64,000 nt of DNA from a virus (Duplodnaviria > Heunggongvirae > Uroviricota > Caudoviricetes), in IMG/VR virus record IMGVR_UViG_3300037313_001331, one strand, 5' to 3'. A program made the translations under genes and the position numbers. The notes beneath the pieces were generated by a model that was not told the DNA's origin, did no database searches, and saw only the letters and a list, made by a program, of their open reading frames with translations. Below, in pieces: positions 2,749-38,507 of this stretch; positions within the stretch are counted from its first letter, which is position 1, and each line of letters begins with the position of its first letter.

Positions 2749-2912
2749 TGGGGCACCTCGATCAATTCGTTGCGCACGCGCATGAACCCGTCTTCGCCGA
2801 TCTCGATGAGCGATTCGTCCAGCTCGTAGCCGTCGGCGTTGTCGCAGTCCCCGCACACCACCGGGTCCTCGCGGTGGAGGCAGCTGTTGCAGCTCGGGAA
2901 CTTGTCGCTCAC
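2745..2912 (-). CDS. small Cys-rich zinc-ribbon-like protein (55 aa)
   Basis: manually translated: GTG start after GAGG SD, CNSC...CGDC, ends in ATGA overlap; below ORF-track cutoff. Confidence 0.4.
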   Translation of the reverse strand: MSDKFPSCNSCLHREDPVVCGDCDNADGYELDESLIEIGEDGFMRVRNELIEVPQ

Positions 2913-3580
2913 ATCACCTCCCGGGCGGCGCTCACAATGGCCACCAGCGCCATGCCGGCTGCGACCATCGAGTCCTCTTCGGCCTTGAAGCCGTTGGTCT
3001 TCACCACGTGGGAGATGAAGGCCTCGACGCGCGCCTGGTCCTCGACGGGCACCTTGAAGCGCATCAGGGCGTGGGTGATGGTTGGGCGCTCGGGCTTTTC
3101 CAGCGTGGGGATGGTTTCCTCGCCCTTCTCTTCGTCATCGAGGCCCAGCATGTCGAGGTCGATGCTGTCGGCCGCGAAGATGCCGGCCAAGTCCTGCTCG
3201 GTGTAGGGCAGGAACTTGGTCACGTCCTCCCCACCCAGGTCCTTCAGGATCTCGCCCAGCTTCAGCGCGTCGTCCTCGCCATACCGGCCGTTGTCGGCCA
3301 GGCCGATGGCCTTGGCTTGGCTGTCAGGGATGTGGCCCAGGTTGACGTAGGGCACCTCAGCAATGCCCATGCGCTGGGCGGCCCGGGTGCGGTGCTCGCC
3401 GCCGAGGATCTGCAGCGACCCATCGGGCAGCTCGCGCACAACAATGGGCTTGTAGAAGCCCATGCGCCGAATGCTCTCTTCGAGTCGGGCCTCCATTTCA
3501 GGACCCACCACGTTGCTGTTCCAAGGGTTGGGAAGCAACGTCGCGGGCGCTGCGTATCGAATCTCGATGCGGCTTGTCAT
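2909..3580 (-). CDS. ParB/Srx-like nuclease domain protein (second copy)
   Basis: LLPNPWNSN...ILGGEHRTRAAQRMG ParB-like N-terminal motifs. Confidence 0.65.
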   Translation of the reverse strand: MTSRIEIRYAAPATLLPNPWNSNVVGPEMEARLEESIRRMGFYKPIVVRELPDGSLQILGGEHRTRAAQRMGIAEVPYVNLGHIPDSQAKAIGLADNGRYGEDDALKLGEILKDLGGEDVTKFLPYTEQDLAGIFAADSIDLDMLGLDDEEKGEETIPTLEKPERPTITHALMRFKVPVEDQARVEAFISHVVKTNGFKAEEDSMVAAGMALVAIVSAAREVM

Positions 3581-10051: not shown

Positions 10052-10084
10052 GGTGTGTACCTTTCAAAGTGTGTGTCAGTAGTG

Positions 10085-15640: not shown

Positions 15641-15949
15641 GCGCTTCGCCGCGTCTTCAGCCAAGGCGCGCTTCATTGCTTCGGCACCCTGGTTGTAGGC
15701 GTCCTGCTCAGCCTTGGAGCGCTTGGCAGGCGCCTTGGAGGTGGGCTTGTCTTGGGGCTGGCAGGCCTGACCGCCAATCACGATGGGGCGAATGCCGCCG
15801 TTGGTCTGGGCCTGGGTGTCGAGCCAGGCATTAAGGGACTTCATGCACGCCTGCTGCGTGCGGTGGGGCGGATCGCTGATCTGCCGTTCGTGTTTCCCAC
15901 CTTCTGCGTCCACCCATGCGATGGTGGCTGCCAGCACAAATTCGATCAT
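15617..15949 (-). CDS. hypothetical protein
   Basis: 110-aa ORF; stop codon lies inside a class B box. Confidence 0.5.
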   Translation of the reverse strand: MIEFVLAATIAWVDAEGGKHERQISDPPHRTQQACMKSLNAWLDTQAQTNGGIRPIVIGGQACQPQDKPTSKAPAKRSKAEQDAYNQGAEAMKRALAEDAAKRAASAPGR

Positions 15950-16566: not shown

Positions 16567-16784
16567 GCCTGCACCTTGAACGCGATGACATGGTCGGCGT
16601 CGATCACGTATCGCGACTGCGTCGGCTCGTAGTCGAAGATGAATGCGCCATTCAAGTGGTCCACCCTCTTCAGCCTCACACCGGAAAAGCCAGCGCCTCC
16701 CGTGAGGAACAAGTCAACCCTAGCCCCTTCCTTGAGACCAGCCAAGTGCGCAGCAACACCGGTGAACTTCTTCGGCTCGGTCAT
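16563..16784 (-). CDS. hypothetical protein
   Basis: ATGA overlap chain. Confidence 0.45.
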   Translation of the reverse strand: MTEPKKFTGVAAHLAGLKEGARVDLFLTGGAGFSGVRLKRVDHLNGAFIFDYEPTQSRYVIDADHVIAFKVQA

Positions 16785-22900: not shown

Positions 22901-22915
22901 TTGTTGCCCTTCGGT

Positions 22916-23391: not shown

Positions 23392-24204
23392 TCACGCGCC
23401 CGCGAAGAGCATCGAGTTCGCCTTCGCCAGCAGGGTGCTCTCGGGGTTGCCGACGTAGCGGCCCTTGCCGTCGGCGACGATGACCTTCAAGTCGGCGAAC
23501 ATGCTGATGGTGTTGCCCGACATCGCCCGGGCCGACGGCACGCTGTAGGGCTTGGCCAGCAGGTTCTTCATCACGTTGCCTTCCTTGCCCGTGGTGATGT
23601 GGCCCTCGTCCTTGAGCACCTTCAGCGTGCGGTGCAGGACTTCGTTGAGCGAGGACTTCTTGCCGCTGATGAACTCGATGAACAGCGAGGCGCGGTTCTG
23701 CTCCTTCTTGTTCATCTTCTTGATGATGGCCAGCGTCTCTTCCATGCGGGCCTTGACCGCCTCGGGGTCGTCGGTGGCATCCGAGACGGTCAGCACCGTG
23801 TAGTCGGACAGCACCCCGCCCACGCGGTCCTTCAGGCGCTCGGTCTTGTCGGTGTAGTGCTTGCGCGGCACCTTGGCCTTCACCGGTGCCGCGGGCGTGG
23901 TCCCGGCGGCGGGGATGACACCATCCGGGGTCGCAGCGGCGATGCTCAGCTCGACCGCTTCGGCACCGGCCACCGCCGCATGCAGCTCGGCTTCGGTGTG
24001 CGCGGGCTTCACCGCGGTCTCGACCGGCGTCGGTGCGACCAGGGGTGCGGCGCCTTCGAGATCGGCGATGAGCGCGCTCAGTGCGGCGTCGCCCGCGTCT
24101 TCGACGGCGGAACCAGCTGCGACAACGCCGCCGGCGTCGGCGGCTGCCGCTTCGACCTTCGGTGCGGCGGTCGACTTCTTGCTGGAACGAGTGGTTTTTG
24201 CCAT
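23392..24204 (-). CDS. hypothetical Ala-rich protein
   Basis: 270-aa ORF; GGAGG SD. Confidence 0.55.
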   Translation of the reverse strand: MAKTTRSSKKSTAAPKVEAAAADAGGVVAAGSAVEDAGDAALSALIADLEGAAPLVAPTPVETAVKPAHTEAELHAAVAGAEAVELSIAAATPDGVIPAAGTTPAAPVKAKVPRKHYTDKTERLKDRVGGVLSDYTVLTVSDATDDPEAVKARMEETLAIIKKMNKKEQNRASLFIEFISGKKSSLNEVLHRTLKVLKDEGHITTGKEGNVMKNLLAKPYSVPSARAMSGNTISMFADLKVIVADGKGRYVGNPESTLLAKANSMLFAGA

Positions 24205-24342
24205 AGGGCCTCCAAAAATTGGGAACTTGCAGAGCCCGCGAACCGCCCGGTTCGCAGTGTTCTCAGTGTTCGCGCTGACCGTTGGCGTGTGTCTTCAGCA
24301 CCAGGCTGTCTTCGCTCTCACCGACCGCCGCACTCGCGTGCT

Positions 24343-24390
24343 GCAGTGGTTGAACTGTCGGGCTCGGGGTTCGGCGCCGGTGCGACCGGC
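24343..24390 (-). promoter_or_regulatory. class B box copy 7 (degenerate, in the attP region)
   Basis: GCAGTGGTTGAACTGTCGGGCTCGGGGTTCGGCGCCGGTGCG resembles the 3' half of copy 6. Confidence 0.35.
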
Positions 24391-24467
24391 GAGGCTACGT
24401 TCGTGATTCGCGAATCACGAAGTGCGCGTGTGCGTGTGCGCGAGTGACACGCCAGACATGGCAGCGG

Positions 24468-24727
24468 CGTTCCCACCACGAGGCCCCACTGTTCCCACCA
24501 CCCCGGGCCGTTCCCACCATCGTTCCCACCTTTTTGCCCGGATGCAGGCGGACGGCAGCGAATAGGCGCGCAAAGAAAAAAGCCCCGTTTCCAGAGGAGA
24601 ACGGGGCTTTTCAGGATGGTTGCGGATCGTGATGAACGATCTGCTGGCGGAGCCGGAGGCTGTCCAATAGCAAGGATTGGCGCGGGTTCCCGGGGTATCA
24701 TTCCCACTTTCCCACCGCCATTCCCAC
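24468..24727. repeat. eight direct TTCCCAC(C) repeats, candidate integrase arm-type sites (attP)
   Basis: TTCCCACC at 24470, 24492, 24511, 24523 and TTCCCAC(C) at 24690, 24701, 24710, 24720, all upstream of int. Confidence 0.5.
24574..24612. terminator. bidirectional intrinsic terminator
   Basis: A-tract, then AGCCCCGT / ACGGGGCT 8-bp stem, then T-tract. Confidence 0.55.
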
Positions 24728-24737
24728 CGGCCAATTT

Positions 24738-25964
24738 ATGCCCCGTCACACCCTCGTCGCCACCACTTTGAAGGCGAAGATCGAAGCCGCACTGGCGGCT
24801 GCCAAGGACTCCCAGAAGGCCCAGAAGCTGGGCGACGGCGACGGGCTGATGCTGGTGGCCCGCCCCAGCGGCGATGCCTCGTGGGTGCTGCGGTACCGCC
24901 AGGATGGTGCACGAAAGGACCTGACCCTGGGCCGGTGGCCAACGCTGACCCTGAAGATGGCGCGGGACGAAGCGGACAAGGCCCGCAAGTCTGCCGCCAC
25001 CGGCGTCGACCCGGTCGAGGCGAAGAAGGCGGCCCGCAAAGCGCGCCCCGGCGTGGCATCGGGCCCGGACACGGTCAGGCGGCTCTTCGAGGACTGGCGG
25101 GCCAAGGAAGAGGTCAGCGCCGTCTACGCCGGCAACATCGAGGCGGCGTTCCTGAAGGACGTGCTGCCTGTCATCGGCGCCGTGCCACCCGAGGACGTGA
25201 CCCGCGAGCAGATCCTGAAAATCCTGCGGACCATCGAAGGCCGGGGCGCCGTCGACATGGTCCGCCGGGTTCGCATGTGGATGCGGCAGATGTTCGAGTT
25301 CGGCATCGAGGACGAGAGCCGCCCTGCCCTGCGCATGTCGCCGGTGCCGATGGGGACGCTGAAGTCCTTCAAGAAGTCACGCAAGAAGCGGCACTACGCG
25401 GCCATCAAGGACGCCAAGGAGGTGCCGGCGCTGATGAAGGCGATCAAGGGCATCACGGACAACTTTGTCATCCGGAACGCCTTCCTGCTGTCGGCGCACA
25501 CGTTCCAGCGGCCGACCGAGATTCGCGAGGCGACCTGGGACGAGTTCGACCTGGACGCAGGCATCTGGCGCATCCCCGCGGAGCGCATGAAGCTGGCCGG
25601 CGAGCACTGGGTGCCGCTGTCGCGCCAGGTGGTGGAGATCCTGCGCGTGCACAAGGGCGTGGTGGGAGATCAGGGCTGGCTGTTCCCGGGCCGGAAGTAC
25701 GGCCAGTCCATCTCCGAGGGCACGCTCACCGGCCGCCTGAACAACATGGGGTTCGAGGGCCGTCACACGCCTCACGGGTTCCGCGCGATGGCGCGGACCA
25801 TCGGTGAAGAGGTCCTGCACATCGACGCCAAGTACCTGGAGAAGCAGCTTTCACACGAGGTCGATGTGAGCGGGCTGCGGGGCGCCTACAACCGGGCGGA
25901 GTACTGGGACCAGCGGGTCAAGATGATGCAGAAGTGGTCGGACTGGCTGGACGCTCAGACATGA
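24738..25964 (+). CDS. int: tyrosine integrase (P4-like, N-terminal arm-binding domain)
   Basis: N-terminus GDGDGLMLVARPSGDASWVLRYR; C-terminal HGFRAMARTIG...RAEYWDQR catalytic region. Confidence 0.85.
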   Translation: MPRHTLVATTLKAKIEAALAAAKDSQKAQKLGDGDGLMLVARPSGDASWVLRYRQDGARKDLTLGRWPTLTLKMARDEADKARKSAATGVDPVEAKKAARKARPGVASGPDTVRRLFEDWRAKEEVSAVYAGNIEAAFLKDVLPVIGAVPPEDVTREQILKILRTIEGRGAVDMVRRVRMWMRQMFEFGIEDESRPALRMSPVPMGTLKSFKKSRKKRHYAAIKDAKEVPALMKAIKGITDNFVIRNAFLLSAHTFQRPTEIREATWDEFDLDAGIWRIPAERMKLAGEHWVPLSRQVVEILRVHKGVVGDQGWLFPGRKYGQSISEGTLTGRLNNMGFEGRHTPHGFRAMARTIGEEVLHIDAKYLEKQLSHEVDVSGLRGAYNRAEYWDQRVKMMQKWSDWLDAQT

Positions 25965-26121
25965 CCCGCGCCTGGTAGGCGTCGATCTCGATGTCCACCC
26001 ACCGGCTGGACGTGCCCTGCTTCACCGGGCGGGGAAACTTGCCTTCTTGGATCAGCTGGTAGATGGCGGTGCGGCCCAGGCCCACACGCTTCTGGACAGC
26101 CGGTAGTGGAAGGAACTCCAT
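25918..26121 (-). CDS. alpA: AlpA-family excisionase / transcriptional regulator
   Basis: LPLPAVQKRVGLGRTAIYQLIQEGKFPRPVK HTH; overlaps the int 3' end convergently. Confidence 0.75.
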   Translation of the reverse strand: MEFLPLPAVQKRVGLGRTAIYQLIQEGKFPRPVKQGTSSRWVDIEIDAYQARVMSERPASPTTSASS

Positions 26122-26134
26122 GGCTCACAACTCA

Positions 26135-26160
26135 GTCAGTACTGAGTCATTATAGGGAGC
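26135..26160 (-). promoter_or_regulatory. class A box plus conserved -10-like box
   Basis: minus strand GGCTCCCTATAATGACTCAGTACTGACTGAG upstream of alpA. Confidence 0.5.
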
Positions 26161-31589: not shown

Positions 31590-32405
31590 CTACTTCACGT
31601 TGATGAAGGGAACCGCGCCGGCGGCCTGGGTGGTCGGGAGTCGCCCGTCCCACTTGGCGATGGCCTGCAACTGCACGTACTCGGCACCGCCCTGCTTGGC
31701 GACCGCCTCCGCCTTGATGCGAATCGCGTCGGCCTCACCCTGGGCCTGGACACGCTGCCGCTCTGCGGTGATCTTGGCGTTCTCCAGTTGGTTCTTCTCG
31801 GCCTGCAGTTGGAACTGGGCCGCTGCGGCGGCCTTGATGTTCGCCTCCAGCGCCGGGTCCGTCAGCAGGTTGCGCACGTTCACCGTCTTGACTTGGAACA
31901 GCCCCTTGCCGGCGTCTGCGTCGAGCGACGCCTGCAGAGCCTTCACGGTCTCCGCTTCGAGCGCGGAACGTTCGGTGTGGATGGTCGCCGAACCGTGCTT
32001 GCTGACCACGTCGTAGATGGCCCCGCGGGCCTGGCGGGTCACGAAGTTCATGCCCACCGCTTCACAGCCGCCACCCTTGATGTCGGTCAGGTCGCCCGGC
32101 CACTTGGTCATGATCGCCGCGGCCTTGCCGGGGTCGATGTTCACGTACAGGTCCACGTCGAGGTCGGCCAGGGCGATCTTGTCGCTGGTCTGCGGCTTCA
32201 GGTCGTTGACGGCCATCGGCAGCTCCTTCGCGCACACCTCGGTGATGCGCTTGAACGCGGAGAAGTACATGCCGGGCGGCAGCGTCTCGTTCTTGACTTG
32301 GCCGAGCGCGGACTCGACGCCCACGTTGCCGGTGTCGATCTGGGTGCAGGCGCCCAGGCAGAGCGCTGCGAGCGCCATCGTGAATGAGAGGAACAGTCGT
32401 TTCAT
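31590..32405 (-). CDS. SPFH/band-7 (prohibitin-like) domain lipoprotein
   Basis: LGAC lipobox; SPFH-like core and Ala/Gln-rich coiled-coil C-terminus. Confidence 0.65.
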   Translation of the reverse strand: MKRLFLSFTMALAALCLGACTQIDTGNVGVESALGQVKNETLPPGMYFSAFKRITEVCAKELPMAVNDLKPQTSDKIALADLDVDLYVNIDPGKAAAIMTKWPGDLTDIKGGGCEAVGMNFVTRQARGAIYDVVSKHGSATIHTERSALEAETVKALQASLDADAGKGLFQVKTVNVRNLLTDPALEANIKAAAAAQFQLQAEKNQLENAKITAERQRVQAQGEADAIRIKAEAVAKQGGAEYVQLQAIAKWDGRLPTTQAAGAVPFINVK

Positions 32406-38429: not shown

Positions 38430-38507
38430 TGGGGACGGCGGCAGGACTCGAACCTGCGACCAAGTGCCTGTTCGGCACGATTGCTCTACCGCTGAGCTAC
38501 GCCGTCC
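38430..38507 (-). tRNA. tRNA-like gene, His-type acceptor (G-1:C73, encoded CCA) but non-canonical anticodon arm
   Basis: canonical D arm and T arm, 7-bp acceptor plus extra 5' G; anticodon region GTGCC-GAACA-GGCAC has a 5-nt loop or G33. Confidence 0.55.

Follow-up and report, generated by a model that had tools for sequence, protein, structure and literature searches.

The attachment site of phage lambda consists of a P arm, a core and a P′ arm, on which an intasome forms with the assistance of IHF and Xis (PMC4880445). In KplE1, arm sites located upstream of the integrase gene give negative autoregulation (Panis et al. 2010, PMC2951348). The IntSXT/P4-type family includes tRNA-gene-targeting integrases of phages, integrative and conjugative elements and genomic islands (PMC8138268). 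The sublocation classes of tRNA-targeting integrases include an asymmetric 3′-end class (10.1101/2020.11.02.365908). Here, we analyzed a locus related to these systems in a 64,000-nucleotide stretch of Caudoviricetes DNA (IMG/VR record IMGVR_UViG_3300037313_001331), the whole of which is called the window below. Segment 24469–24728 is, in our judgement, quite probably the phage attachment site (attP) of a ~111-kb phage, used by the adjacent heterobivalent tyrosine integrase (Int). Judged by its sequence, it is an attP of the conventional type for a tRNA-Ser-targeting, arm-binding tyrosine integrase. The features of the site and of the adjoining genes are as follows.

24738–25964, plus strand: tyrosine integrase gene int, with the Pfam domains Arm-DNA-bind_3 (DUF4102), Phage_int_M and Phage_integrase
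25918–26121, minus strand: gene of a putative AlpA-family excisionase (recombination directionality factor), Pfam Phage_AlpA, E = 9.4e-9
24700–24728, minus strand: int-proximal arm on the tRNA-upstream side, with exact matches to AGTGGGAAT (24700–24708), GGTGGGAAA (24708–24716) and GGTGGGAAT (24720–24728)
24645–24659, minus strand: predicted attP core CCTCCGGCTCCGCCA, corresponding to tRNA-Ser(GCT) positions 62–76 (3′ end), single copy in the window
24625–24641, no strand assigned: inverted repeat GATCGT-GATGA-ACGATC between terminator and core, read from the sequence
24578–24611, minus strand (also folds on the plus strand): predicted intrinsic terminator after the core, with 12-bp perfect arms
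24469–24530, minus strand: int-distal arm on the tRNA-downstream side, with four exact GGTGGGAAC sites at 24469–24477, 24491–24499, 24510–24518 and 24522–24530

Arm repeats, core and terminator

On the plus strand, exact TTCCCACC copies were found at 24470, 24492, 24511, 24523, 24709 and 24721, and one more lies at 15894 of the window. A seventh TTCCCAC, present as TTCCCACT, is located at 24701. The repeats form two same-strand clusters, at 24470–24530 (four copies) and 24701–24728 (three copies), and TTCCCAC occurs just once elsewhere in the 64 kb. A chance origin is excluded, because ~0.03 copies of a 7-mer are expected per 259 bp and seven were observed (Poisson P ~4e-15; ~1e-12 after correction for the number of 259-bp windows). 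A coding repeat was ruled out as well, since the spacings are irregular (22, 19 and 12; 8 and 12) and, as a set, not multiples of three. The original prediction, made from the sequence alone, had listed eight direct repeats. Seven of these hold, as 4 + 3 copies; those placed at 24710 and 24720 are each one base off (24709 and 24721). The eighth, placed at 24690, is TTCCCGG at 24687–24693 and is not conserved in L008, a related phage locus (relatives are designated by L and a number). Read on the minus strand, the arm sites have the consensus GGTGGGAA; the four and three sites flank the core over 260 bp, and the last site of the three-site arm stops 9 bp before the int ATG.

L008 encodes an Int that is 88% identical to that of the window. 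It carries TTCCCAC at all seven positions, with A instead of C as the eighth base in six of the seven copies, and the four int-distal sites appear there as TTCCCACA. The spacers among the repeats are 57–72% identical between the two loci, and the block from terminator to core is 95–97% identical.

The core lies between the two repeat sets, as had been anticipated. On the minus strand, 24645–24659 matches the 3′ end of tRNA-Ser(GCT); it lies within 24540–24690, for which an alignment with tRNA 3′ ends had been suggested as a check. The 15 bp are identical to this tRNA end in Burkholderiales (including Rhizobacter, Piscinibacter and metagenome-assembled genomes) and in many other Proteobacteria. 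The C-variant of the core, preceded by a canonical T-arm (TTCGAATCCCTCCGGCTCCGCCA), is present in at least 120 species. ARAGORN placed the core at the 3′ end of tRNA-Ser(GCT) in all 14 Burkholderiales loci with a call; one further locus had no call. A matching bacterial attachment site (attB) exists in plausible hosts, because TTCGAATCCCTCCGGCTCCGCCA forms the tRNA-Ser(GCT) 3′ end in Burkholderiales loci. The Variovorax paradoxus tRNA 3′ end (TTCGAATCCCTCCGGTTCCGCCA) differs from the window core at one acceptor-stem position. Rfam and tRNA scans of the attP region returned no hit.

The tRNA identity begins at position 62 and does not extend from the T-loop to CCA, as it does in the T-loop sublocation class. 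tRNAs have a conserved C61; position 61 is G in the window, where the T-loop equivalent reads TTGGACA. We considered an unusual host T-arm (TTCGACA-GCCTC), which would stretch the identity to 20–23 bp. This candidate was rejected: instead of the conserved C61, the window has G and L139 has A, and the window, L008 and L139 differ mutually at T-loop position 3. Since position 61 departs from the conserved C, the identity block is no longer than 15 bp. In L139 (Int 66% identical), a tRNA-3′-end-like block likewise ends 15 bases from the CCA and has a different acceptor-stem sequence. Because this locus shares the boundary with a different acceptor stem, we take the 15-bp limit as a probable working feature, which would place strand exchange in the T-stem/acceptor part, corresponding to the asymmetric 3′-end sublocation (10.1101/2020.11.02.365908). 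This point is the main uncertainty of our interpretation.

Homology was found with related attachment sites. The reverse complement of 24440–24760 aligned over its full length with the unintegrated attP of L010, L011 and L013, and it also aligned with the left prophage junctions (attL) of L009 and L016. Upstream arm, core, terminator and four-site arm all correspond in these alignments. The window core pairs with the tRNA-derived cores, the four-site arm with four GTGGGAA/GTGGTAA sites, and the three-site arm with the two-site upstream arm of L010, L011 and L013. The same layout is present in the upstream sequences of L017, L018, L140, L141 and L143. L009 is the Variovorax paradoxus chromosome CP046622, in which a 61%-identical integrase gene lies directly downstream of lysC and tRNA-Ser(GCT). 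The order there is the tRNA ending in TTCGAATCCCTCCGGTTCCGCCA, a terminator (AAGCCCCGT...ACGGGGCTTTTTCTTTG), four GTGGTA(A) repeats and the int start codon. An attL beside lysC–tRNA-Ser(GCT) was also found in the metagenomic chromosomes L016, L017 and L141. Related attP sites, like real attL junctions, have a related 7-mer arranged in a 2–3 + 4 layout around a tRNA-derived core; this comparative result supports the earlier assignment of the repeats as arm-type sites. In most relatives, int comes after the four-site arm, which is preceded in turn by upstream arm, core and terminator. The att unit of the window, L008 and L139 has the opposite orientation with respect to int. The three-site arm therefore lies directly beside int, and in a lysogen int would be placed at the tRNA-distal prophage end.

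The relatives yielded two side observations. L142 (2750–2790) shares its integrase protein and the identical right-hand sequence from GAGGGTTCGAATCCC with L141. Its left flank is formed by LytTR, ammonium-transporter and AstE_AspA genes, not by lysC–tRNA-Ser, and has no arm repeats; this arrangement may reflect a secondary site, a tandem element or a chimeric assembly. In L013 (8647–10466), L014 and L140 (2594–4374), a pair resembling a diversity-generating retroelement (RVT_1 reverse transcriptase and bAvd) lies a few kb from int.

The arm motif follows the Int clade: GTGGGAA accompanies the five closest integrases (window, L008, L010, L011 and L139; 65–100% identity), and GTGGTAA accompanies the group with 60–62% identity (L009, L013, L016, L140 and L141). 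We interpret the arm repeats as integrase-binding-type sites, to which Int would bind. The alpA gene travels with int, so this covariation cannot by itself separate Int from AlpA. The TTCCCACC repeats might instead serve another protein. Candidates are the AlpA-like factor, a transcriptional regulator acting on the divergent genes, and proteins for replication or partition that use iterons or a centromere. Their location in a divergent intergenic region and the ParB_N-domain proteins encoded in the window would agree with such a role. We nevertheless consider it improbable. The same motif flanks the tRNA-derived core left and right, with a single orientation and lambda-like distances. An identical layout is present at the chromosomal attL of small prophages that are unrelated and have just the int/alpA module in common. 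The sites of the KplE1 directionality factor TorI were mapped on attL, i.e. on one arm (PMC2951348). Furthermore, a related 110-kb phage without int has no such repeats.

The terminator region had been described as bidirectional. The stem with its A- and T-runs is real and folds on both strands, with −22.3 kcal/mol on the minus strand (z = −3.9, with a T-run after the stem) and −21.3 kcal/mol on the plus strand. A consensus terminator scan detected it on the minus strand only, through the distal part of the stem (24596–24583). The minus-strand order after the core is AAAGCCCCGTT...AACGGGGCTTTTTTCTTTG, followed by the four GGTGGGAAC repeats, and a terminator occupies the same place after the tRNA 3′ end in L009, L010, L011, L013, L016 and L139–L141. 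Owing to the better T-run on the minus strand and to the shared position after the tRNA, we assign it to the tRNA: lying on the tRNA-restoring arm, it is the putative replacement terminator for a regenerated tRNA-Ser, and this minus-strand role takes the place of the bidirectional one. Between terminator and core, the arms of the GATCGT-GATGA-ACGATC repeat are kept in L008, and the repeat resembles the AGATCGTTGAT motif in the terminator loops of relatives. This inverted repeat may be a candidate site for an accessory protein.

The integration module and its carrier phage

The N-terminal Arm-DNA-bind_3 domain of Int (PF13356) was recognized at residues 14–99 with E = 5.6e-22. The catalytic residues R258, K285, H346, R349, H373 and Y384 are invariant among 10 homologues. 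Comparison with the L008 gene gave a ratio of nonsynonymous to synonymous substitution rates (dN/dS) of 0.11 at dS ~0.67. The alpA gene is convergent with int, with a 47-bp overlap, and the int/alpA pairing is repeated in nearly all relatives. From their sequences, both proteins look functional. The Pfam domains agree with the predicted pair of a P4-like integrase and an AlpA excisionase, and phage genes flank this pair. The start of alpA is immediately preceded by a palindrome (ACTCAGTCAGTACTGAGT, 26130–26154) and a minus-strand TATAAT, similar to the GTCAGT/ACTGAC-type boxes of the window; this suggests that alpA may be wired into the phage's own transcription programme.

The G+C content is 64% throughout the window. 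Genes for a DnaE-type polymerase, ribonucleotide reductase, SbcCD, a UvsX-like recombinase, a CobS-like ATPase and a helicase are distributed on both sides of attP–int, as are class A and B boxes. The identical integrase is present on eight contigs. On the three that were displayed, the flanking phage genes are the same to the left and to the right; the remaining five were collapsed as largely alike in their gene neighbourhood. Because identical-int contigs carry phage genes on both sides, the locus is a phage genome and not a prophage junction, and the claim of an intact attP within phage DNA was upheld by comparative genomics, with the region also syntenic to a 110-kb phage contig. Over 19.2 kb, the window is identical, base for base, to a 110,897-bp JGI metagenome contig. 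That contig stops at window position 16781 and the window extends 16.8 kb further left, which is consistent with a circular or circularly permuted genome and different assembly breakpoints. The window polymerase shares ~40% identity with its counterparts in phages of ~110 kb, for example Rhizobium RHEph10, Pseudomonas nickie and the SSU5 group. A DNA search of deposited phages returned weak integrase-gene matches only, with no DNA-level likeness beyond a short int stretch.

The 110-kb phage L004 (IMGVR_UViG_3300042896_000947) is syntenic with the window and has homologues of the genes at 31590, 30161, 29123, 26632 and 23392. Between the homologues of 26632 and 23392 (L004 5238–6049), it has ~800 bp without int, alpA, a tRNA-like core or repeats. 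The homology between the window and L008 stops just past alpA, and the left neighbour gene is common to both. Since the attP–int–alpA module is absent between conserved neighbours in L004, it appears to behave as a ~2.4-kb cassette. These boundaries might also be taken to mean that the module is a separate small integrative element or satellite residing inside the phage genome. We regard this as very improbable. There is one core copy in the 64 kb, so no attL/attR pair bounds such an element, and the two arms flank this single core in the state of an unrecombined attP. The unit carries only int, alpA and attP, and its left neighbour gene is shared with L008.

With the above results in hand, we propose how attP would be used. 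Starting from the observed architecture, its conservation, the homology to real attL junctions and the matching tRNA genes, we infer lysogeny and, by analogy with lambda-type intasomes, the KplE1 IntS/TorI system (PMC2951348) and the DUF4102 IntSXT subgroup (PMC8138268), also protein binding, the crossover position, excision control by AlpA and autoregulation. Read on the minus strand, attP consists of the three arm sites (GGTGGGAA), a spacer of ~40 bp, the 15-bp core, a conserved spacer, the terminator and the four arm sites. The Arm-DNA-bind_3 domain of Int would bind the seven arm sites, and its core-binding and catalytic domains would bind the core. An intasome would form on the ~260-bp site, probably with a host DNA-bending protein, and strands would be exchanged with the host tRNA-Ser(GCT) gene somewhere within positions 62–76. 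After integration, the tRNA would remain intact, ending in phage-supplied sequence and the phage terminator. That prophage end would then carry the four-site arm and the gene 23392–24204. With the three-site arm just upstream, int would be placed at the far prophage end, reading inward. The predicted attL is ...GAGGGTTCGAATC/CCTCCGGCTCCGCCA/GCAGATCGTTCATCAC, and the predicted right junction (attR) is ...GCTATTGGACAG/CCTCCGGCTCCGCCA/ with host sequence beyond it. Control of excision would fall to the AlpA-like protein. By occupying the three sites next to its own start codon, Int would probably also repress int, in analogy to KplE1 IntS.

Several results weigh against this interpretation. The 15-bp tRNA identity starting at position 62 is shorter than the 20–23 bp of L010, L011 and L013, which reach into the T-loop; if this integrase clade exchanges strands in the T-loop, attP would be mismatched here. 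An attL-specific 31-mer (tRNA T-loop, core and phage flank) had 0 matches in genome_contigs and metagenome_contigs, and two core-plus-flank patterns had 0 matches in IMG/VR. All displayed places of the identical int are unintegrated, and the others were collapsed as similar. The nearest ~110-kb relative, L004, is without any integration module. No repressor or other lysogeny gene was recognized among ~25 window proteins scanned, and a sigma-70 promoter scan upstream of int detected no promoter. An attP/attR pattern likewise had 0 matches in metagenome_contigs; this collection does not contain the present phage, and the metagenome negatives are weak. In a separate search, a degenerate core-plus-flank pattern for inverted-type sites gave 15 matches in IMG/VR; all were rejected as chance matches, with no integrase or repeats nearby.

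The lack of a lysogen junction in any collection searched, the free form of all displayed int places, the shortened core, the relative without the module and the missing repressor could together describe a decayed or idle relic. The phage would then be effectively lytic or otherwise maintained, and its cassette would no longer integrate, perhaps with the tRNA identity eroded to 15 bp and the T-loop lost. This explanation seems unlikely to us. Purifying selection acts on int (dN/dS 0.11), and its product has the complete set of catalytic residues. Even at a divergence of dS ~0.67, two phages have kept the core block and all seven arm sites. The same 15-base boundary, with a different acceptor-stem sequence, is found in the independent lineage L139, which speaks for a working feature and against erosion.

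More tentatively, and at rather less than even chances, a lineage history can be proposed. A ~110-kb siphovirus-like lineage with DnaE, ribonucleotide reductase and SbcCD (distant kin of RHEph10, nickie and the SSU5 phage-plasmids) might have captured an inverted attP–int–alpA from small Burkholderiales prophages. Strand exchange would occur in the acceptor-stem part (62–76) and not in the T-loop, and int would be tRNA-distal in a prophage of more than 100 kb. If true, a group of large phages that otherwise does not integrate would recently have turned to chromosomal lysogeny. Two ParB_N-domain proteins (1311–1985 and 2909–3580, both minus strand), which adjoin an ABC/AAA ATPase gene (34–783), could have partition-like or nuclease functions, and they bear on the question of whether the phage also persists as a plasmid.

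The testable target, a tRNA-Ser(GCT) ending in CCCTCCGGCTCCGCCA, gives a host-range hint (Burkholderiales, e.g. Rhizobacter and Piscinibacter) for an uncultured ~111-kb phage. The consensus GTGG[G/T]AA defines the arm site for a DUF4102-integrase clade, with natural specificity variants. Judging from the comparison, the integration module is also a ~2.4-kb cassette that moves among widely differing phage backbones and can take either orientation. The current understanding of site-specific recombination is unchanged by these results. Mildly interesting points are that the site is inverted, that its core is short and that the module sits like a cassette in a large phage, the nearest relative of which is without it.

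Features outside the probable attachment site

Three further elements had been counted into the attP-like region. All three are real, and they belong to the upstream region of the divergent gene 23392–24204, not to the conserved parts of attP.

24400–24421: perfect 22-bp palindrome TTCGTGATTCGCGAATCACGAA, unique in the window
24338–24384: class B copy, 77% identical to the copy at 22914
24238–24255: hairpin GCGAACCG-CC-CGGTTCGC, −15.9 kcal/mol

The palindrome had been given as 18 bp (24402–24419) and is in fact longer. Its L008 counterpart, TTCGCGATTCGCGATTGCTGAA, has lost the palindrome. We rejected it both as a part of attP and as an operator: it is unique in the window and not kept as a palindrome in L008. 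An alternating GC/GT tract (24422–24446) follows directly.

The hairpin is situated 34–51 nt upstream of the start of the divergent minus-strand gene, within its leader. In L008, its counterpart GCGAAACG-CC-CGTTTCGC contains a compensatory double change in one pair, and both versions fold. The leader (24188–24266) is conserved at 92–97% between the window and L008, compared with 60–75% for the adjoining DNA. The role of the hairpin might be that of a structured RNA leader or of a palindromic operator.

The degenerate class B copy, which had been placed at 24343–24390, is one of seven intergenic class B boxes (14183, 15600, 17604, 21148, 22914, 24338 and 63817). Class A boxes were found at 10070, 15536, 22431, 34772, 57123 and 61281. 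The two recurrent box families (TGTGTGTCAGTGGTGACT... and GTGTTGCGATGGTTGAA...) precede minus-strand genes to the left and right of int and are probably phage-specific promoter or leader elements of these genes. Elsewhere in the window, the phage encodes a tRNA-Val (38430–38506, minus strand; ARAGORN, Rfam 48.9 bits) with the anticodon AAC, which is probably uncommon in bacteria.

Comparison with known systems

The closest match is the group of prophages and phages with 60–66% identical Ints at lysC–tRNA-Ser(GCT) (L009, L010, L011, L013, L016 and L141). These Comamonadaceae/Burkholderiales elements share with the window the integrase clade, the convergent AlpA-like gene, the tRNA-Ser(GCT) 3′-end core, the terminator right after it and the GTGG(G/T)AA consensus. 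They also have four arm sites past the terminator and two to three on the other side, as in the window. The differences concern order, core length and carrier. The group has the order tRNA, core, terminator, arm, int, whereas int lies beside the three-site arm in the window; its identity blocks are 20–23 bp long, compared with 15 bp here; and its members are small prophages, whereas the window belongs to a ~111-kb DnaE-encoding phage.

The IntS–TorI systems of KplE1/CPS-53, HK620 and Sf6 at argW combine a heterobivalent tyrosine integrase with a tRNA 3′-end target, as here, and the window Int is ~33% identical to HK620-type IntS. In both KplE1 and the window, arm-type sites overlap the region just upstream of int, and the gene of the directionality factor is transcribed separately. 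KplE1 has the ‘STI’ shape: the tRNA comes before int, the two are neighbours with the same orientation after integration, and the P′ arm on attL overlaps the promoter of int. The window departs from this shape: core and terminator are on the strand opposite to int, although arm sites still abut the int start codon. The arm beside int is that of the tRNA-upstream side, and in a lysogen ~111 kb would separate int from the tRNA. The P4-type/IntSXT subgroup (Smyshlyaev et al. 2021, PMC8138268) shares the DUF4102/Arm-DNA-bind_3 N-terminal domain with the window Int, which indicates membership at the family level only. Deposited phages include no close relative of this Int; the best match is that of Stenotrophomonas phage S1 (38% identity).

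Lambda attP (PMC4880445) spans ~240 bp, compared with ~260 bp here, and both sites combine a bivalent Int and an adjacent excisionase with two arms, whose short repeats are distinct in sequence from the core. Lambda differs in the family of the arm-binding domain; in the window, the core is a tRNA 3′ end and all arm sites have one orientation. The locus combines the elements of a heterobivalent attP: the catalytic set, an N-terminal arm domain, repeats on both sides of the core, a core identical to a candidate attB and an adjacent putative directionality factor.

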